A stretch of DNA of 49,559 bases. It comes from a virus (Duplodnaviria; Heunggongvirae; Uroviricota; Caudoviricetes). Below, in pieces: positions 1,992-12,935 of this stretch. A model generated the notes under the pieces. The model was not told the DNA's origin. It made no database searches and saw only the letters and a program-made list of their open reading frames with translations. The position numbers and the translations under genes are program-made. Location: the IMG/VR virus record IMGVR_UViG_2563366953_000002, positions 1-49,559 of that record. One strand, given 5' to 3'. Numbering within the stretch: position 1 is the first letter of the stretch; the number at the start of each line of letters is the position of its first letter.

Positions 1992-3044
1992 TCAGGAGCC
2001 GATATATTCTGGTTTCATATCTGTCAGTGTCGTTTTATACGCCTCATATAATTCTCCCAGATGTGGTCGTGCAGCATTCAGCGTATTTTCCAGAGCAGTA
2101 AATTTTTGTTCTGCTTCCGGATCACCTGATGAAGGCAGGTCATTTATCATCTTCTCAATACGGGCAATAGCATTGAGACGGTGATGACGCTGAACCACTT
2201 TTCCTTTAAGTTCCGTATAGAGAGCGCCAAGTGTATTTTTATGCTCTTCCACTTCCTGCCGAAGTGCTGTTGTTTCTCCGGTGCTTTGTGCCTGCTCAAT
2301 ACGTTCACGGAAAGCACTGATCCAGTTTTCCCCGGCATCCTGCTCAATAATTGTTGTTTCACGTTCCGCACGGCAGGCGGATGTGTTTTTATGTTCCTGA
2401 ACCGGATTAATGATTTTTTCCTGTTGTTCGTCCAGTTCGTCCCTGGTGTACACTCCAAGAATCACTTCAGGGCAATAAAGGCGCGCCCAGCGTTTCAGTG
2501 CCAGATAGGCAAGCTGCTGACGAGGATCATCGGCCCATAACGTTGAGTTACGTGTTCTGGCCTGCGCCAGAAGTAACTCCAGTACGCGTGGTTTGCTCTC
2601 TCCGCGTAGTGTTGCCTGGACGCGAACTCCGATTCCGTTTTCATCGGCCAGCTTCCAGCCAGGTACACGATATTCTTTCCCTTTGTCGTTCTTCCTGATT
2701 TCAAATTTCCCGATAATTTTTTCCCACGGCCCGAACCAGTCATATTCAATACGCCCGGTTAGCGGCCCACGAGTACTGATTACGGCATTAACCAGTTGCG
2801 CTTCATATCCGAGCACACCATTCACAACGAAAGTTTTCTGAGCTACTGCATAAGGATTCATTTGCCACTGCATCGCCTGCATGGTGATGGCCATGCAGTC
2901 TGATGGATTTCCTCGGAGGTGTTCCGGTACAGTAGCCATGCCGGAAGCCATTACCTGAGAAAACGTCTGAATTGCAGCCAGAGACTGAGGGCTGAAAACC
3001 GCAACATTAGAGTTAATATTTTCTTGTTGAGTTAATTCGTTCAT
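1992..3044 (-). CDS. Bet/RecT-family single-strand annealing protein
   Basis: 350-aa ORF with ATG at 3044 after GAGGAAGG. The segment ..STLWADDPRQQLAYLALKRWARLYCPEVILGVYTRDE.. aligns by eye with my recollection of lambda Bet (..GPWQSHPKRMLRHKAMIQCARLAFGFAGIYDKDE..). Lies directly downstream of the large exonuclease gene. Confidence 0.7.
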   Translation of the reverse strand: MNELTQQENINSNVAVFSPQSLAAIQTFSQVMASGMATVPEHLRGNPSDCMAITMQAMQWQMNPYAVAQKTFVVNGVLGYEAQLVNAVISTRGPLTGRIEYDWFGPWEKIIGKFEIRKNDKGKEYRVPGWKLADENGIGVRVQATLRGESKPRVLELLLAQARTRNSTLWADDPRQQLAYLALKRWARLYCPEVILGVYTRDELDEQQEKIINPVQEHKNTSACRAERETTIIEQDAGENWISAFRERIEQAQSTGETTALRQEVEEHKNTLGALYTELKGKVVQRHHRLNAIARIEKMINDLPSSGDPEAEQKFTALENTLNAARPHLGELYEAYKTTLTDMKPEYIGS

Positions 3045-3055
3045 TGTGTCCTTCC

Positions 3056-6000
3056 TCAGATGCTCAGTGCTTCAAGACGACGAAGATCAAAGTCGTTTAA
3101 TTCGTCGGTATAACTTTCGGTAATCGGTGCTGGCCAGTTGTTTGTCTCCAGCGCTTCGTTTATCTGTCGTAGCGTCCGGCGATATTCCTGTCGACCAAGT
3201 TCCAGGAGTTCCTGCGAGGCTTCCACGACTGCCACCCAGTGATAGCCAGCATCTTTGTTGACGAAGATCCAGAAAAATTTGTCCAGGTTTGCCACATCGC
3301 AATACATTGCGGCGCTGAGGTGATAATCACGCTCAATAATTTCACGGTGCAGGCGATCTTTAAGTCGTTCCTGCCGCACATAACCGAGGCTGACTGACTT
3401 CACGTCAGCGCAAATGCTTTCGTATGGCAGCCGGATTTCGATATCAGGACGGACCCTAATTTCCAGCCCGGTTTCTTCATCAAACCCGAAATAGCTGATT
3501 TCAGATTTGCGATCCGGGTGGTTGAGTAGCCTTGCTGCATCGGTATTGTTTTGCAGTGCCGCGTGAATATTTTTTGCCTGTTCATACATATCCGGACTGA
3601 TAAACGTTTTCCCGGCGTTTTCTTCTTGCTGGCGTTTTTGCCAGTCCTCCAGTGTCACCAGGTCCGGGCGAATTTTCCGTGCGATTTCGGTTAATTGCTC
3701 TTTTGTGCCACTGATGTTGTAAGGCAAAGATTTAGCACGTTCTTTTTTTGCCAGTTCTGGGTCTACAGTTTCAATTTGATCCAGAAGCTGCTCCCGTGCT
3801 CCACTGGTTTTCAACAGAGGAGGGAGGCTTGCGTTGTATTCTTTAATACAGGCTTTCATTGCTGATGCTGTGTGTTTTTCCCCCTCAGGAATACGCCGAA
3901 ACTCCTCCGGAAGCGAACCGTAAAGGATGCCTGTTTCTTCGGCCCCAGCGCTTACCGACAGTGGCTGTATAAGAGTGCTGTTGTAGCTTTCGATCCACTC
4001 TTTCATCTGCTCTGGTGTCATCAGTGATGGCAGACTGGCATTATGTTTTTTAATGATGGTGATCAGTTCGTTAGAAGTAGTAACCACATATTCAGGAACC
4101 GGTACCGGAATGGCATATTCATCAGCGAATTTATCCGTTTCCAGAACATAGCTGTGAATGATCCGCCCACGCAGCAATGCATCACTTTCCTCGTTCGGGA
4201 TAGTTCCGGCAATGTGCCGCCCGTGGTAATACATCAGACTGATGCGGGCATCCTTCAGCATTGTGCTGCTTATTCCGTTGGCGGAGTGATAAACCTCGTT
4301 CGGGAGGTTTTCATAGCGACCAGGCTCGAAATATGACGGCCACATGATTTCAGTTGCTACATGAGCTGACGCTTCACCAGTTTCATCACTGCAATCGTGA
4401 TGCGGATGGTTGCCAGCGTTCTCCTTGTGCGGATGTTCAGCGCCTTCCATTTCCTCCGGATCTTTTTCCTGAGATTCATCCAGATTTTCTCCATCGAATG
4501 TTTCCTGGTATGTTGCGTCGCCCATCACCGCACCACAGTCAGGGCAGTTATCCCCGCCAGTCTGACCGCAGGCATTGCAGACTATTTCCGGTTCCCGTTG
4601 CACTACTGGCTCAGGTTGTTTCACATCCTGACTGGTTTTTTCCGTTTCTGGCTGGTTCTGGTTCACAGAATCGCGAGTCTGGATCCCTTTAACCCATTTC
4701 GGATCATTCGGGTCGCTAATTCCGTCAACAAATTCACCACGTGATGCAGCAAGCAATTTGTCGGCATCGACAGGATTTTTTGATGGAATGTTTTTCCGGG
4801 CTTCATGGAGCTCTTCCCGCAGTTCCTGATATTTCGCATCAACAGATTTTACCTGTGACTGAGCATCCAGCGGCTGCGTGTTCTGATGATGTTCAGTTGC
4901 ATCCGGTTCCACTGTTTCAGCCGTTGCCTGTTCATTTGCCATTGCGCAAGATGGTTGCGGTTTTTCTTCATCATCCTGTTTTTCTTCTGCTACACGCTGC
5001 GGCATTGGGGCAGAGGAGCGACCGCAGGCAATATCCACGATTTCCGGATCAGGGTTGGCATGATCGGTTTCAGTCAGCACCCTGCTCAGATATTCGGTGA
5101 CACGGTGGTGGGTAGCCTCGATACCAATTGGTGCTTCTTTTACGGACGCAACCACAATGGCGCGGGAATAATCCAGCCCGCCAGGCATGGTGATGAATTT
5201 GTCGCGGAAAACAGAAAAGGGCGGTTTATTTTCAGCGATAATTTCCTCAATGCGTTTAGCGTGTGCCGGATGAAGGTTATAGATGTCCACGTCCATTGAA
5301 CGGGCCAGTACGCCAGTGGCTACGTCGCGCGCCAGTGACGTAAGATCGTGGACGAAACCTTCGCCGCGATCGGTGAGGTTCCCGCCGCCAGCATTAGCAC
5401 CGGAAGCCGTGCGAGTGATGCGTGAAACACGATTCCCTTTTCGCCATTCTTTTGTCAGAAGACCGCGATCAATGTGTTCGGTATCCAGCCAGGCTGAAAT
5501 GAAATTCTTAAATTCATAGGGCTGATGTTTTTTCGTGATAGAGAAAACCGCCTTAATTGCATCAGTCAGGCGGAGCAGGGCGGCATTATCCAGAGTTGTC
5601 GGTTCTGCCATGCCGCGTATGGCCAACAGCAGATTCTGGACATAGCTGTTTTCCTGGTCCATCTCAAGAGCAGTAATGTGTTCGCGTTGTTCACGGGTGG
5701 CATGATGCAGGTATTTCCGATCCCCGGCCGCATACGTAAAAATGTGCAGAAGACGCTGTGTGAACCGCAAAGTGGCTACAGAGACTTCGCAATCCTGGCA
5801 ATCCCCGTGGGCGTCTGCCTGCGCGTTTTCTTCCTGGCCTCCCGCCAGTTCTTTGGTTTCCTGAGCATTATCCTGGTGGTTAACGTCGTCTGGCGCTGCA
5901 CCCGGTTTTAGTTCCCAGGTCATGGAGTCTTTGCTGAGTTGATAGCGTTCACTCCAGGTAAAATCGATCTCACCTTCAGGGGGCAGGTCATTAACGACAG

Positions 6001-7923: not shown

Positions 7924-8089
7924 CTTATCTCTCCCCTTAACGCCGGGTGGCGGAACTAAAACCTGCTGCACTGCAACATTTGAACCCTGCCGTCATGTTC
8001 TTACGCCTCGGGCTGGCTACTTACCCCCTGACCACTGCCTGGTAACTCGAAGTATTGCCCGGCGTTCTGTGGGGCGGGGTGGGTTGGTA

Positions 8090-8160
8090 GGTATATGATG
8101 TACTTTGTGTTCATTGTTGTAAAGTACTTTAAGTACATTTTGTGTGTAAAAAAATGAGAT
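8090..8160. promoter_or_regulatory. putative left operator/promoter region
   Basis: Copies of TGTACT/AGTACT at about 8099-8104, 8123-8128 and 8132-8137 (inverted), including the near-palindrome AAGTACTTTAAGTACA; lies between the repressor gene and the leftward operon. Coordinates approximate. Confidence 0.35.
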
Positions 8161-8213
8161 GGGATAAAGTGAAGCACAAACCCGGAGGGGGACGCTACCG
8201 GATTTATGCTGGT

Positions 8214-8633
8214 TTAAGAGGCTTTTTGTTTTTTCTTTCGTGCTAACTCTTCGTAAATTGCATTGTACTTCTGTTTTTTCTCCTCAAGAGTTTTTAAAAG
8301 TTCATCTGTCTCACTGTCAGGGAGCTCGTCCAGAAGGTCAATGATGATTTTTTGTCTTGGATTTAACTCCTGATAGAAACGTACCTGTCCACTTTCTTCT
8401 GTATCCTCTCCCAAAAGATAGGTTGGTGTTGTTCCAATGAGTGTTGCTAATTCCCTTAATTTCTCTCGGCGAGGAATTGTTTCGCCATTAAACCATTTGC
8501 TAACCGCTTTTGGTGTTAATTTCATTCGACGGGCAATTTCTGCCTGCCTTCCATGTTGTTCATAACCAGCGTTTTCACAGGCTAGCGCAAGCCTACTGGC
8601 GAACTCTTTACGCGCTTTATCTTCATGAACCAT
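8214..8633 (-). CDS. HTH (XRE-family) phage repressor, RacR/CI-like
   Basis: 139-aa ORF with a helix-turn-helix segment (..QAEIARRMKLTPKAVSKWFNGETIP..); no LexA-like S24 peptidase domain; divergent from the Cro-like gene. Confidence 0.75.
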   Translation of the reverse strand: MVHEDKARKEFASRLALACENAGYEQHGRQAEIARRMKLTPKAVSKWFNGETIPRREKLRELATLIGTTPTYLLGEDTEESGQVRFYQELNPRQKIIIDLLDELPDSETDELLKTLEEKKQKYNAIYEELARKKKQKAS

Positions 8634-8712
8634 AAGTTCAATGATATTCGCTCTTGAATGTACTGTCAGTTCTGTTATAGCATGTACTCAAAGTTCACAT
8701 TGTGAGGGTGAT
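8634..8712. promoter_or_regulatory. putative right operator/divergent promoter region
   Basis: 79-bp intergenic region between the divergent repressor and Cro-like genes with two ATGTACT copies (about 8658-8664 and 8682-8688) 24 bp apart. Confidence 0.4.
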
Positions 8713-8967
8713 ATGAACCAGAAAACACTTGAAGATGTAATCAAAACTGTTCGCGTTTCTGTTGTGGCCGACGTTTGTGGTGTCAGCCAAAGAGCAATCT
8801 ACAAATGGATGGATAACGGAAAACTGCCTCGCACAGAATATACCGGCGAAACAAATTACGCTGAAAAAATCGCTCATGCATCAAACGGATTATTTTCTGC
8901 CGATGCAATTTTAACTATTGGCAAAAATAAAACTACTACGAAAAAGCTGATGGGAGTTGATTCATGA
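8713..8967 (+). CDS. Cro/YdaS-like HTH DNA-binding protein
   Basis: ATG at 8713 after GAGGGTGA; 84 aa with an HTH segment (..VADVCGVSQRAIYKWMDNGKLP..); first gene of the rightward early operon. Confidence 0.55.
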   Translation: MNQKTLEDVIKTVRVSVVADVCGVSQRAIYKWMDNGKLPRTEYTGETNYAEKIAHASNGLFSADAILTIGKNKTTTKKLMGVDS

Positions 8968-9386
8968 AAATCAAGCATGAGCACATCGAATCAGTGTTGT
9001 TAGCCCTGGCAGCCGAAAAAGGGCAGGCATGGGTAGCCAATGCAATTACTGAAGAATATCTGCGCCAGGGGGGCGGCGAATTGCCCCTGGTTCCAGGCAA
9101 GGACTGGAACAATCAGCAGAATATCTATCACCGTTGGTTGAAAGGTGAAACGAAAACGCAAAGAGAAAAAATTCAGAAGCTGATCCCAGCAATTCTGGCA
9201 ATCCTTCCGCGCGAGCTGCGTCACCGACTCTGCATCTTCGATACCCTGGAACGCCGTGCATTACTGGCGGCGCAGGAAGCGTTGAGTACGGCAATTGATG
9301 CGCATGATGATGCAGTCCAGGCCATTTACCGGAAAGCGCATTTCAGCGGCGGTGGTTCGTCCGGCGATTCTGTTGTTGTTCATTAA
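8964..9386 (+). CDS. YdaT-like protein
   Basis: 140-aa ORF whose ATG overlaps the upstream stop (ATGA); begins MKIKHEHI and ends ..VVVH, as I recall for Rac YdaT; position after the Cro/YdaS-like gene. Confidence 0.5.
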   Translation: MKIKHEHIESVLLALAAEKGQAWVANAITEEYLRQGGGELPLVPGKDWNNQQNIYHRWLKGETKTQREKIQKLIPAILAILPRELRHRLCIFDTLERRALLAAQEALSTAIDAHDDAVQAIYRKAHFSGGGSSGDSVVVH

Positions 9387-9398
9387 GGTGATGTGGTG

Positions 9399-9695
9399 AT
9401 GGAAAAATATGAACTGAAAAAATACCGACTTAAAACACTGGAAGGCGAAACATTGCTTCAGCGTATAGCCCGAAATGTTGCCTGGTATGCCATACGACTC
9501 TCTCTGCATCGCCATCTTGTTAACGGGTATCCCTCGTCAACGCTGTTGTTCATCAATATCAAAGATAAAGAAAAAGCCGCAGAACACATTCGGTGGATGG
9601 AACTGGCGCAGGGACAAGCTCTTGATATTGAGTATGGCGATGAGATCGACTACAGCAAAGCTCAACCGCTGCGCCACGTAATTTTTAGGGGGTGA
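9399..9695 (+). CDS. hypothetical protein
   Basis: ORF track start is GTG at 9393; the ATG at 9399 is preceded by AAGGTGATGTGGTG; 98 aa. Confidence 0.4.
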   Translation: MEKYELKKYRLKTLEGETLLQRIARNVAWYAIRLSLHRHLVNGYPSSTLLFINIKDKEKAAEHIRWMELAQGQALDIEYGDEIDYSKAQPLRHVIFRG

Positions 9696-9947
9696 TTATG
9701 ACATCTTTTCTTTTAGCTTTTGTAGGGCAACGATCAGTTCATCAATTTGGGTTGCATCCATTATCAACTCTAGTTTGTGATAAGCCCCGTAATTTAGCTC
9801 CTGTGTGTGGAATTCCTGGGCAAGTATTTTTACTCCTCCGCGATTGAGCATTCCTGAGGTGCTAAAAATTTTTGACTCGGTTCCAGTAATACTGTCCACC
9901 CAAAATTTTTGTGGGAATGGAGCAGACTTATCAAATGTAAAAGACAT
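9696..9947 (-). CDS. hypothetical protein on the opposite strand
   Basis: 83-aa ORF with ATG at 9947 after a strong AAGGAGG; embedded between rightward early genes; no motifs recognised. Confidence 0.45.
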   Translation of the reverse strand: MSFTFDKSAPFPQKFWVDSITGTESKIFSTSGMLNRGGVKILAQEFHTQELNYGAYHKLELIMDATQIDELIVALQKLKEKMS

Positions 9948-10026
9948 GTCGAACCTCCTTTGGTTCTGTTGATTGGGGAATCACAGATTATATCCGGAGG
10001 AAGGTTCGACACCAGATGAGGCAATT

Positions 10027-11151
10027 ATGGTTAAGGCTAAAAATATGCCAAATCCCATGCCAAAAACTAAGGCAAACAATGAGCCTTATCGCAAGGTAAA
10101 AATAACGATATGGGATGATCCCAAATTTAGGGCGTTATCTCCTCTGCCTCCAAGTGGACAGAGTTTGTTTATTTATCTGCTGACCAGTCCATTTACCGGG
10201 ATTATTCCTGGGTTGTTTAAAGCCGGGCGGGCAGCAATGGCTGAAGAGTTGGGGTGGGATATCGAAGCCTTTGACTTAGCCTTAGGCGAAGCCATGAATC
10301 TTGGCATAGTGAAAGCAGATATCAAAGCCAGAGTTTTTTGGCTCCCGAATGCTGCGAAACACAATCCGCCAAACTCGATAAATGTCATTAAATCCTGGGC
10401 AAAGGCATTCGCTTTAATTCCTGATTGTCCTCTCAAATGGGAGGCTAGGGAATCGCTGAGAGCCGCGTCCTATGGGGTTTCTGAGGCTTTGGGGATGGCA
10501 TTCGATAAGGCAATCCCTTTGCCTGAGGATAAGCCTAAGGATAAGGCTAATGCTTTGTCATGCGGTATCCAGATAACAGATAACAGATATATAAACCCCA
10601 CACATAACGCGCGCGTGCGCGAGAGTGCTCCGGCCAGTGAGGCAAATGGCGTGCCGTTGCAGACAGCGGAACCTGATTACCTGGAAGGCCTGAACGAACC
10701 CATCGGGAAATTTCCGATGACTGATGGCTGGCATCCGTCGCTGGATTTTCGACGGCGGGCAGCTCTGTGGGGAGTGGCTCTGCCGGAGCCGGAATTTACA
10801 CCAGCTGAACTTGCCGCCTTCCGGGACTACTGGGCAGCGGAGGGGAAAGTTTTCACGCAGGTTCAGTGGGAGCAGAAATTCGCCCGTCACGTAAATCACG
10901 TCAGGGCGCAGGTTAAACCAGTCAGCAAGGGGGTGAACCATGCAGCAGCACCAGGTGGCACCGCATCACGGGCAGTTCAGGAAATTCGGGCAGCACGTGA
11001 GCAGTGGGAACGTGAAAACGGATTTATCAGCGACGGAAACGGCCTGGAAGTTGTGGGAACTCATGGGGGAGGTTTATTCGAACCGCTGGACCCAGAAGAA
11101 CGGGGCCGCACCTTCGAAGCTCTGGATTGCACAGATTGGTGCGATGACTGA
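10027..11151 (+). CDS. putative replication initiation protein (O-like / replisome organiser)
   Basis: ORF 9973-11151 trimmed to the ATG at 10027 (GAGG upstream). Sits directly upstream of the P-like gene and contains iteron-like repeats; the C-terminal tail resembles the part of lambda P upstream of its helicase-loader domain. Confidence 0.5.
10504..10625. repeat. iteron-like direct repeats with AT-rich and alternating-GC tracts (candidate ori)
   Basis: GATAAG(G/C) three times (about 10504, 10527, 10540) and AGATAACAGATAACAGATAT (about 10571-10590), followed by ATATATAAA and ACGCGCGCGTGCGCG; inside the O-like gene, as the origin is in lambda O. Confidence 0.4.
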
Positions 11152-11605
11152 GCAGCAAATCCGACAGGTCTGCCGCCAGTGCATGGACCGCTGCCGGACG
11201 GGTGAAACATGGCCTCCGGACCTGGCTGAGTTTGTGGCGCTGATTTCGGAAAGCGGGGCCAATCCATTCGGTCTGACGGTGGATGCTGTGATGGAGGAGT
11301 ACCGACGCTGGCGCAACGAGTCCTGGCGATACGACGGAAGCGATAAATACCCGTGGTCTCAGCCTGTGCTGTATCACATTTGCCTCGAGATGCGTTCAAA
11401 GGGGATTGAGCGCCAGATGACCGAAGGGGAGTTAAAACGACTTGCAGAACGGCAACTGGCGAAATGGGCAAAGCATGTTGGTGACGGCTTCAGCGTTCCG
11501 CCCGTACGGCGGCAACTGGCAGCACCAGAACGCCCGTCGGGGCCAACACCAATTGAGTTGCTGAAACAGGAATATGAACGCCGGAAAGCGGCTGGTTTTG
11601 TTTGA
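11144..11605 (+). CDS. lambda P-like replication protein (helicase-loader domain)
   Basis: ATG at 11144 overlaps the O-like stop. The product ([12 protein letters not shown]...[13 protein letters not shown]...[15 protein letters not shown]...[21 protein letters not shown]...) aligns by eye with my recollection of the C-terminal two-thirds of lambda P. The same frame is open upstream to 10940. Confidence 0.6.
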
Positions 11606-11638
11606 GTTGATAAGTAATTTTACCGGGAGGAAATTTTA

Positions 11639-12394
11639 ATGGAGACTGTTTTTGACGCACTGAAAGCAATGGGAAAAGCCACATCCATAGAACTTGCTGC
11701 GCGACTTGATATCAGTCGTGAAGAAGTGCTGAACGAACTATGGGAACTGAAAAAAGCTGGTTTCGTTGATAAAAGCGCGTACACCTGGCGTGTGGCTGAT
11801 AACAACGTTCAGCAGGAACAGCCAATGCAGGCAGAACTGCCGGAAGAAACCACCACGGCAACAGTAGCGAAAATCTCAGAGTGCGATTTAACTGCGACGA
11901 TTGAGCAGCGTGGACCACAAACGGCGGATGAACTGGCTACGCTGTTTGGTACAACATCCCGCAAAGTGGCTTCAACGCTGGCAATGGCAATCTGCAAAGG
12001 ACGCCTGATTCGCGTAAACCAGAACGGTAAATTTCGTTACTGCATACCGGGCGATAATTTACCAGCAGAGCCGAAAGCTGCATCGGTAACGGAAAATGAT
12101 GGTAAAGCCTTTCCTCAGCCAGCAGGTGTTGCGTTACCAGTACAGGAAGCTGCAACACAGGAAGATATTAAAACAGAAACTGTGGCGGACATTGTGCAGT
12201 CGCTGCCATCGTTTACTGAAACGCGAGCTGATGATCTGATTTTGCCATCGCTGCATCTGGCAAACCGCGAACTGCGTCGGGCGAAAAATCATGTCCAGAA
12301 GTGGGAGCGAGTCTGCGCCGCGCTGCGGGAGCTGAATAAATATCGCGATATTGTCGCCCAGCTTTGCCAGGAGGAAACCAGTGAGCAACATTAA
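11639..12394 (+). CDS. hypothetical protein with two winged-helix-like segments
   Basis: 251-aa ORF with ATG at 11639 after GGAGGAAA; two HTH-like stretches (..[30 protein letters not shown].. and ..[35 protein letters not shown]..). Confidence 0.45.
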
Positions 12395-12935
12395 TTACCA
12401 GGCACTGCGAATGGCGGCAGAAAATGCAACCCCTGGCGAATGGTGTTCTGATGATTATGGGTTAATTGCTGATGCCGGACTGAACGCAAATTACTACATA
12501 GCATCATGCTCAGGACCAGATAATCGCGCCAATAAGCGATTCATAGCAGCAGCCAATCCGGCTACCGTGCTGGCACTGCTGGATGAACGGGAAGCCCAAA
12601 GCAAACGCATTGCAGAGCTGGAGACTAATCTTGCTGCACTTTCGGCGGAGAATGCGGGGCTGAATAAATTTATCGTACAGAGTTGCTACGTGTTTGATGG
12701 CGAGCAGGATGAACTATCTGATGCCTATATCTGCGCAATAGACGGAAGGATGCCGCAAATCCCAGCCACCGACGCTTTCTTGTCGGATGTGCGGGCTGGG
12801 GCATTTAACGACCTTTGCGCGGCGTTTGTCAGGCACGCAAAAGTTGCAGGACTGGATGATGCCGATACCGTAACGCTTAAGGAAGTGACAGATGCGCTGC
12901 TGCATTGTGCAGAACAGCTTCGTATATCTGAATAA
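12381..12935 (+). CDS. Ea22-like protein
   Basis: GTG at 12381 after AGGAGG, overlapping the upstream stop; N-terminus [21 protein letters not shown] resembles the ead/Ea22-like family as I recall it. Confidence 0.45.

Follow-up and report, generated by a model that had tools for sequence, protein, structure and literature searches.

The DNA analyzed here, referred to as the window, is the whole 49,559-nucleotide (nt) stretch of IMG/VR virus record IMGVR_UViG_2563366953_000002 (Caudoviricetes). Our subject is a cluster of repeats at positions 10504-10625, which lies within a gene for a replication initiator and probably forms the core of a prophage replication origin. The initiator gene begins with an ATG at 10027, has a GAGG Shine-Dalgarno sequence upstream, and ends with a stop codon at 11151; its product consists of an N-terminal domain (N-domain, approximately amino acids 1-160), a disordered linker, and a DnaT-like C-terminal domain (C-domain). 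The repeats fall between the N-domain and the DnaT-like domain, in the linker predicted to be disordered. The features are as follows:

10027-11151, plus strand: initiator gene
10504-10569, plus strand: array II, candidate iterons, units with a 12-bp period and the core T-W-W-G-S-C-W
10570-10595, plus strand: candidate DNA-unwinding element, CAGATAA, CAGATAA, and CAGATAT (10570-10590), then ATAAA
10592-10611, plus strand: conserved core TAAACCCCACACATAACGCG, common to initiators with different N-domains and divergent DnaT-like C-domains
10607-10621, plus strand: alternating purine-pyrimidine GC tract ACGCGCGCGTGCGCG, which contains the 10-bp palindrome ACGCGCGCGT
10711-10911, plus strand: DnaT-like domain of the initiator, which binds single-stranded DNA (ssDNA) by family assignment (Pfam PF17948, E=1.8e-17, 63 bits against a cutoff of 25)
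11144-11605, plus strand: lambda P-like helicase loader gene, with an ATG at 11144, overlapping the initiator stop codon

A preliminary description of this DNA had pointed to repeats and AT-rich and alternating-GC tracts inside an O-like gene and had likened them to the lambda origin. The elements that it listed are all present and all lie within the initiator open reading frame (ORF): GATAAGG at 10504-10510, GATAAGC at 10528-10534, and GATAAGG at 10540-10546; a tandem block spanning 10571-10590, with AGATAAC at 10571 and 10578 and then AGATAT; ATATATAAA at 10587-10595; and the GC tract at 10607-10621. The GATAAG copies are real, but they are only a subset of the true repeat, which has a 12-bp period and comes in two types, ATAAGGCT and CTTTGCCT (GATAAG(G/C)C... 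versus (C/G)CTTTG(G/C)C...). Array II reads GATAAGGCAATC, CCTTTGCCTGAG, GATAAGCCTAAG, GATAAGGCTAAT, GCTTTGTCATGC, and (GGTATC), with units starting at 10504, 10516, 10528, 10540, 10552, and (10564), five to six copies in all, and the GATAAG copies are units 1, 3, and 4. Within this single sequence, the repeats are modestly beyond chance and are significant only with comparative data: GATAAGS occurs 17 times in the window versus 10.6 +/- 3.2 in shuffles, when the gene is codon-shuffled, 6% of the versions contain some 6-mer three times within 50 bp (a weak result), and an exact period-7 tandem of 20 nt occurs in 0.15% of shuffles.

The comparative data come from relatives of the N-domain in Citrobacter phage Chris1, seven bacterial genomes, and two viral contigs. 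The bacterial genomes in this family belong to Salmonella, Citrobacter, Serratia, Pluralibacter, and Dryocola, and Escherichia coli is also in the relatives set. We aligned 10 family members (9 nonredundant) by codon and measured synonymous differences in a sliding window as the fraction of identical-residue pairs with different codons. This fraction was 0.42 to 0.65 through most of the N-domain and 0.43 to 0.65 in the C-domain, amounting to about 46 to 56% in both, and it dropped to 0.03 to 0.04 at alignment columns 146 to 170 (amino acids; approximately nt 10516-10590), within a low-synonymous zone that spans approximately 10492-10610. Amino acid divergence in this zone was 0.35 to 0.43, above the N-domain level, and nucleotide identity in the linker was 0.80 versus a protein identity of 0.63, while the corresponding values for the N-domain were 0.77 and 0.82. 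Columns with a single codon made up 15 of 21 in the linker versus 21 of 112 in the N-domain (Fisher p=4e-6; as the family sequences are related, the Fisher tests overstate independence, an objection that leaves the effect sizes unaffected). Codon choice in the 12-bp array likewise departed from that in the rest of the same genes: Lys was AAG in 32 of 33 cases (versus 44 of 152), Leu was TTG in 22 of 23 (versus 41 of 243), Pro was CC[AT] in 32 of 32 (versus 120 of 221), and Ala was GC[AT] in 27 of 28 (versus 167 of 351). Conservation of the repeats against synonymous drift in homologs had been named beforehand as a check, and the outcome was strongly positive: the repeats are clearly conserved to a greater extent than the protein demands. 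Because synonymous change is nearly absent and nucleotide identity exceeds protein identity, it is the DNA itself, and not the peptide, that is under strong purifying selection at 10492-10610.

The structure of the repeat unit points the same way. Across relatives, the order of the two unit types varies (unit 4, at 10540, is of the other type in the Citrobacter relatives), and four or five copies plus a half unit are present. The information profile over 42 units was T3, W4, W5, G6, S7, C8, and W9, with positions 3, 6, and 8 near-invariant, two of these being third codon positions. Overall, the third codon positions of the unit (3, 6, and 9) were the best conserved and the first codon positions (1, 7, and 10) varied, the opposite of coding constraint. 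One could suppose that the repeats are a by-product of a low-complexity, flexible linker rich in Lys, Pro, and Ala that arose by slippage and has no function at the DNA level. In favor of this idea, each GATAAG copy reads in frame as Asp-Lys codons, the repeat units translate into tetrapeptides, disorder is predicted for the linker, and clusters of three hexamers do turn up in codon-shuffled genes, as noted above. The idea is largely refuted by the conservation of third codon positions, the extreme codon bias, and the excess of nucleotide over amino acid identity; moreover, neither the 7-bp tandem nor the frame-shifted core (see below) is a peptide repeat. We consider it extremely unlikely.

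Next to array II, the heptads and ATAAA form the least stable 20-, 30-, and 40-bp duplex of the 8000-12500 region (duplex minimum at 10565-10606). The AT-rich tract of the preliminary description is thus the local weak point of the duplex, but it is short and moderate, with 69% A+T at 10570-10598 and a lowest 40-bp GC fraction of 0.375. The heptads are kept as three to four copies of CAGNWAR in all family members, and with a period of 7, the tandem cannot be a peptide repeat. Other N-domain families have 6-bp CAGATA repeats at the heptad position. Two initiator genes are broken near these repeats: one extra CAGATAA heptad shifts the frame in L081 (IMGVR_UViG_2690316123_000001), and L004 (E. 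coli SC476, NZ_LR778151.1 1889497-1893063) has a 1-nt insertion just past the core and is annotated as two coding sequences. These cases suggest slippage-prone repeats or decaying prophages.

The core TAAACCCCACACATAACGCG was matched by more than 120 viral contigs. Of the loci recovered via the DnaT-domain protein rather than via DNA, which are close relatives only (92 to 100% identity), 79 of 79 carry TAAACCCCACACAT, with TAAACCCCACAC invariant and ATAACGCG nearly so. The core is also identical at 19 to 20 of 20 positions in L038 and L083, two loci with far more divergent DnaT domains, and in two others (L014 and L011) the reading frame through the core is shifted (Q-T-P-H versus N-P-T-H and CTC-TCT versus TCT-CTT). 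Since it is read in shifted frames and kept with divergent DnaT domains, the core is constrained at the DNA level. The alternating-GC tract that follows was correctly described as present, but it is the least constrained and weakest part of the element: its length varies by 6-nt indels among close relatives, and it encodes A-R-V-R by common Ala, Arg, and Val codons.

Array II and the downstream elements have different distributions among phages and bacteria. In searches with megablast against phages and with blastn against 5426 complete E. coli genomes, the whole initiator gene was found in only 38 of the 5426 genomes and in one phage record at 97%, while the sequence from 10567-10592 onward was found in 715 of the 5426 and in many phages. 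A mosaic junction therefore lies at 10567-10592, and the cassette downstream of it is common to at least seven unrelated N-domain families. This shared cassette consists of (C)AGATA(A/C) repeats, a short A-rich stretch, and then TAAACCCCACACATAACGCG(CGCG...), and each N-domain family has its own repeat set directly 5' of it. In L006, L007, L058, L110, and L122, this set is 3 to 9 GTCACG copies spaced alternately by 10 and 11 bp; in L105, it is seven copies of ACTACG; in L002, ACCCAAA-type repeats; in L038, GTCCGC/GCGGAC at 11-bp spacing; and in L083, AAGGGGGCAAA, TGAGGGGTYAAA, and GATCCGTCAT. The YdaU family, which includes K-12 Rac, has the inverted repeat GTTCAAACA/TGTTTGAAC upstream of the cassette position. 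Thus, repeat type covaries with N-domain family, and the cassette of A/T-rich segment and core is shared together with the DnaT-like and P-like module. Lambdoid origins are known to be arranged in this way, with specificity repeats moving along with the N-domain and the part for unwinding and loading moving along with the C-domain. The lambda-like layout that had been proposed is borne out across families, in that the linker carries repeats specific to the N-domain and then, shared among families, a segment rich in A/T and in C/GC, and a P-like gene lies downstream. The GTCACG sister family also includes L026 and L065 and is found in E. coli O157:H7 and other prophages, with copy number differing between otherwise similar prophages.

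The coincidence of the junction with the repeats raises the question of whether the linker is conserved as a recombination junction, either homogenized by recent exchange of modules or kept as a "linker" for shuffling. BLAST similarity to phages with other N-domains does begin exactly at 10567-10592, as this explanation would have it. The linker, however, is not unusually similar overall (80% nucleotide identity, against 77% in the N-domain), and it combines many nonsynonymous changes with almost no synonymous ones, a pattern that recent transfer cannot yield, which makes such an account very improbable. The lambda origin, too, is the site where the specificity and loader modules join.

The 12-bp unit also occurs in two further clusters within the initiator gene:

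10033-10100, plus strand: array I, at the start of the initiator gene, a candidate for control or for auxiliary binding of the initiator, with AAGGCTAA, ATGCCAAA, ATGCCAAA, and AAGGCAAA at exact 12-bp spacing (10033-10076), then GAGCCTTA and AAGGTAAA
10264-10293, minus strand: mid-gene block GAAGCCTTTGACTTAGCCTTAGGCGAAGCC, 30 bp in the region coding for the structured N-domain, a candidate auxiliary iteron pair

Matches to WWGSCWAA start at 10033, 10045, 10057, and 10069, such that the first 25 or so codons of the initiator are units with a 12-bp period, and this periodicity at the 5' end of the gene is present in all family members. Array I also overlaps a minus-strand promoter-like site (10051-10024). 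On its minus strand, the mid-gene block contains two units spaced by 12 bp, CTAAGGCT and CGAAGGCT (an inverted pair). It coincides with a second dip in synonymous differences (0.22 to 0.25 in the sliding window; 34 of 329 in the block), and its rare TTA codons are near-invariant across genera (10 of 10 family members). The 5' half of the gene has 23.6 matches to the motif per kb and the flanks have 0.86 (nine loci), an enrichment that is circular at array II because the motif was derived there and independent at array I and the mid-gene block. The motif is clustered, at conserved positions, in all nine loci. Two distant homologues of the N-domain (50 to 55% identity), one of which has a lambda O-type PF09524 C-terminus, retain the 12-bp period in a modified unit. 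One of these loci, L216, has three copies of GGAAGGCATACG in perfect tandem mid-gene, at a position equivalent to that of the 10264-10293 block, and a linker with GAAGGCWT units, then TATCCAG, then (GARCAG)x5; the other, L217, has three copies of GAAGCCTW mid-gene and a linker with 12-bp-spaced units that have WWGGC/WWGCC cores.

By its overlap with the translation start, array I could be an autoregulatory or auxiliary initiator-binding array, and we can only speculate that it and the mid-gene pair have a role in autoregulation, looping, or copy control. Alternatively, the 10504-10625 region might be a cis-acting site bound by the initiator, such as an autoregulatory operator or a "handcuffing" array for copy control, with replication starting elsewhere, for example, at array I or in an A/T-rich intergenic stretch such as 9400-9700. 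The existence of three clusters in one gene is compatible with this, the position of array I suits autoregulation, and similarly unstable A/T-rich segments are found at 9403-9433, 9546-9576, and 11592-11640. We nevertheless regard this alternative as unlikely, as only array II directly adjoins a tandem A/T-rich segment and a core common to N-domain families, and array II is where synonymous change is most strongly frozen and where the mosaic junction lies.

Synonymous constraint could also be imposed by an overlapping antisense ORF, by an antisense RNA with a terminator, or by mRNA structure. An antisense ORF of 43 amino acids (10470-10601, minus strand) has an open frame, with 0 to 2 stops, in all family members, and a scan for consensus elements flagged, at 10621-10599 on the minus strand, a GC hairpin whose tail contains T. 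The antisense peptide is conserved no better than the sense peptide, though, and an overlapping ORF accounts for neither the 12-bp periodicity, nor the two other clusters, nor the replacement of the units by unrelated repeats in other families; we judge this explanation quite improbable. The consensus promoter scan gave no sigma-70-like site near 10500-10650, its terminator-like matches were the GC tract itself, and Rfam at E<=1 gave only a spurious microRNA match outside the region. The terminator-like match at 10599-10621 on the minus strand, a GC-tract hairpin (CGCGC/GCGCG) followed by TTATGTGTGGGGTTTATAT, may be incidental.

The best PHROG match of the initiator ORF is phrog_1408, "replication initiation protein" (E=2e-90), and its N-domain has weak matches to phrog_1701 (E=6e-13) and phrog_6251 (E=5e-4), of the "DnaD-like helicase loader" and "replisome organizer" families. 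A Pfam scan at E<=0.01 gave no family match to the N-terminal 200 amino acids, Phage_rep_O included, and a sequence search of the PDB gave no match to the N-domain. By sequence, then, the N-domain is novel, and the description of the gene as "O-like" holds for its role only: the initiator is not homologous to lambda O, and its C-domain is DnaT-like. The latter domain matches the DnaT structures 6AEP, 4OU6, and 2RU8 in the PDB (E=1e-20 to 4e-17), and ssDNA binding by the DnaT C-domain is documented by PDB entries 4OU6 and 4OU7. Its score against NCBIfam DnaT is 96.6 bits versus a curated cutoff of 201, and the initiator is thus not a full-length DnaT equivalog. The loader matches Pfam PF06992 (E=1e-15, 58 bits against a cutoff of 26) and phrog_109, "P-like helicase loader" (E=2e-53).

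An AlphaFold2 model of the initiator had a low-confidence mean predicted local distance difference test (pLDDT) score of 56, with only 14 N-domain relatives from the homologue search and hence a shallow alignment. The model shows helices and strands up to residue 156, with a helix-helix-hairpin pattern in an N-domain core at residues 56-156. No secondary structure is predicted for residues 157-202 (nt 10513 onward), and pLDDT values are below 50 at residues 166-202 (nt 10540 onward). This predicted disorder of the linker is consistent with a peptide that tolerates a sequence dictated by the DNA. The weak, nonsignificant Foldseek matches of the N-domain are nearly all winged-helix proteins, which we take only as a hint.

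Together, these data support a model, to which we assign a probability of about 70%, in which 10504-10625 is the core of a prophage replication origin organized as in lambda and located within the part of the initiator gene that codes for the linker. By analogy with lambda O and P, and given the known ssDNA binding of the DnaT C-domain, we infer the following order of events. The N-domain would bind to and oligomerize on the 12-bp-spaced units at 10504-10569, and would probably also bind the clusters at 10033-10100 and 10264-10293. The resulting nucleoprotein array would strain and open the A/T-rich heptad segment at 10570-10598, and the DnaT-like domain would capture the exposed single strand around the core TAAACCCCACACATAACGCG. 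Finally, the P-like protein (11144-11605), with the DnaT-like domain, would deliver host DnaB.

Several points weigh against this origin model, besides the relatedness of the family sequences and the circularity of the motif enrichment at array II. The units encode a [DP][KL][AP][KN] tetrapeptide-like repeat, to which there may be a protein-level contribution. Their 12-bp spacing is off the helical repeat, unlike that of the 10/11-bp GTCACG family, and the A/T-rich segment, at only about 29 bp and 69% A+T, is weaker than that of lambda and shorter than its roughly 40 bp. The low-confidence model and the structure search, which gave no Foldseek match against the PDB below E=0.17, did not confirm a DNA-binding fold for the N-domain, and we found no published binding, unwinding, or autonomous-replication data for this type of origin.

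The resemblance to ori-lambda is nonetheless close in organization. Here, as in lambda, the origin would lie inside the initiator gene, in the linker between a DNA-binding N-domain and a loader-recruiting C-domain; the order is initiator-specific repeats, an A/T-rich segment, and a GC-rich segment with a palindrome; the P-like loader gene (PF06992) comes immediately after the initiator; and repeats covary with the N-domain, with a mosaic junction at the origin. The parts differ. Lambda has four dyad-symmetric iterons of about 18 to 19 bp, approximately two helical turns apart, whereas array II has five to six units with a 12-bp period and a 7- to 8-bp core and only partial dyads, such as AGGCAAtccctTTGCCT at 10508-10524; the lambda iteron geometry is not found here. 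The A/T-rich part is approximately 29 bp long and composed of tandem heptamers, the unit forms two extra clusters in the gene outside array II, and the N-domain does not match Phage_rep_O. The C-domain is DnaT-like (PF17948) and not of the PF09524 type, to which the C-terminus of lambda O has been assigned (PMC5509034).

Rac-type modules and DopC/DopE (below) are the most similar systems. In the replication region of the Rac prophage (ydaS-ydaT-ydaU-ydaV), a DicA/RacR-like repressor, a Cro-like protein, a YdaT/CII-like protein, the initiator, the loader, and DUF1627/YdaW follow in the same order as here. Rac-SA53 DNA is 94% identical to the window from 10567 onward, and the K-12 ydaU linker shares the GATACAGATAAAGATCT-type repeat at the domain junction. 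Rac reportedly carries an active origin, oriJ (PMC3945230), for which our literature search found no nucleotide-level mapping. Rac differs in having a DUF1376 N-domain with the inverted repeat GTTCAAACA/TGTTTGAAC in place of the 12-bp units, and K-12 YdaU has another C-terminus and a DnaC-like partner, YdaV. K-12 also has C7TAAATC7G5 after the GATA repeat in place of the CCCCACACA core. The order in K-12 Rac ydaU (L135, locus 4540-4660; NC_000913.3, about 1421539-1421659) is GTTCAAACA...TGTTTGAAC, then GATACAGATAAAGATCTAAAAACAGATC, then C7TAAATC7G5. The K-12 ydaU domain junction is a plausible candidate position for oriJ.

In the Bacillus phage SPP1, oriL lies inside gene 38, which encodes the replisome organizer, and replication uses the loader G39P and the phage-encoded helicase G40P. 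The placement of the origin within the initiator/organizer gene is thus shared with SPP1, while host clade, loader, helicase, and repeats differ. Stx-phage origins vary in iteron number but have true lambda O homologues with lambda-type iterons (PMC7466680); copy number varies here too, with 4 to 5 array II units across the family and 3 to 9 GTCACG copies in the sister family. DopC/DopE are domesticated, lambda O/P-like genes in the chromosomes of Cellvibrionales and Oceanospirillales (Brezellec et al. 2017, PMC5509034). As at this locus, an O-like DNA-binding domain at the N-terminus is joined to a C-terminal DnaT motif, and a P-like gene comes next. The authors of that study found neither iterons in the genes nor an origin at the locus (PMC5509034), whereas the gene described here is a prophage gene with conserved repeat arrays.

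In our literature searches, one of them a full-text search with the core sequence, neither this type of origin nor its core was described, and no mapped origin turned up for the module of variable N-domain, DnaT-like C-domain, and P-like loader. The existence of such an origin is unsurprising to a specialist in phage replication. The details are of use, however, as the module is very common, occurring in O157:H7 and in Stx-associated prophages, and the analysis yields a nucleotide-level prediction of its origin, with candidate iterons for this family and six others and a conserved core that is testable as the site of action of the DnaT-like domain and the P-like loader. The locus is also a clean example of a cis-element that dictates the codons, and even the peptide repeats, of the gene in which it lies. 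It matters for annotation, recoding, and synthetic phages because synonymous recoding of the linker is predicted to be likely to kill replication.

A broader interpretation, which we find possible but rather doubtful, is that these loci represent a widespread, undescribed class of lambdoid origins assembled from two exchangeable cassettes, one for specificity and a universal one for "opening and loading," with the DnaT-like domain recognizing the single-stranded core. The first cassette would consist of the N-domain and its own iterons, written in three clusters even into structured parts of the gene, and the second of (CAGATA/CAGATAA)n, then TAAACCCCACACATAACGCG, the DnaT-like domain, and the P-like loader. 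If this were so, the DnaT-like domain at the core would nucleate DnaB loading, and phages would be reusing a replication-restart fold for origin firing, independently of PriA.

Three regulatory genes lie 5' of the initiator, one for a Cro-like helix-turn-helix protein and two others:

8214-8633, minus strand: DicA/CI-like helix-turn-helix repressor (Pfam/PHROG)
8964-9386, upstream of the initiator: YdaT/CII-like protein

A DUF1627 gene lies downstream of the P-like loader gene, and the regulators, initiator, P-like loader, and DUF1627 gene therefore mark the region as a Rac-type lambdoid module for immunity and replication. Two ORFs separate the CII/YdaT-like gene from the initiator, at 9393-9695 (plus strand, 100 amino acids) and 9696-9947 (minus strand, 83 amino acids), neither of which has a Pfam or PHROG match; the 9393-9947 interval holds several A/T-rich stretches of low stability (9403-9433, 9546-9576, and 9695-9725). 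We also considered a DnaA-dependent, oriC-like origin, which we rejected: there is no perfect TTWTNCACA box between 8154 and 17629, and the initiator gene has a single site with one mismatch (10524-10532) and no cluster.

Three of the loci compared here have individual features of note. The initiator of L105 (minus strand, plus coordinates 2124-3422) has 433 amino acids, with a DUF1376/YdaU-like N-terminus, a DnaT-like C-terminus, and an inserted segment that, from reading its sequence, we take to resemble a putative T5orf172/GIY-YIG-like domain. In L038, a divergent DnaT-type initiator with the core, on the minus strand, is followed by an ORF that looks like a RuvC-like resolvase (MAAVLGIDPGCSGSL...), with no P-like gene next to it; from this gene order, the core is not strictly tied to a P-like loader. 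L003 is PP818812.1 8417-10049, from "Actinobacillus phage vB_Apl-pPE4," and is 97% identical to the replication genes of the window, while E. coli chromosomes reach 99.5%; the stated host of PP818812.1 looks doubtful, or else the phage crosses families.

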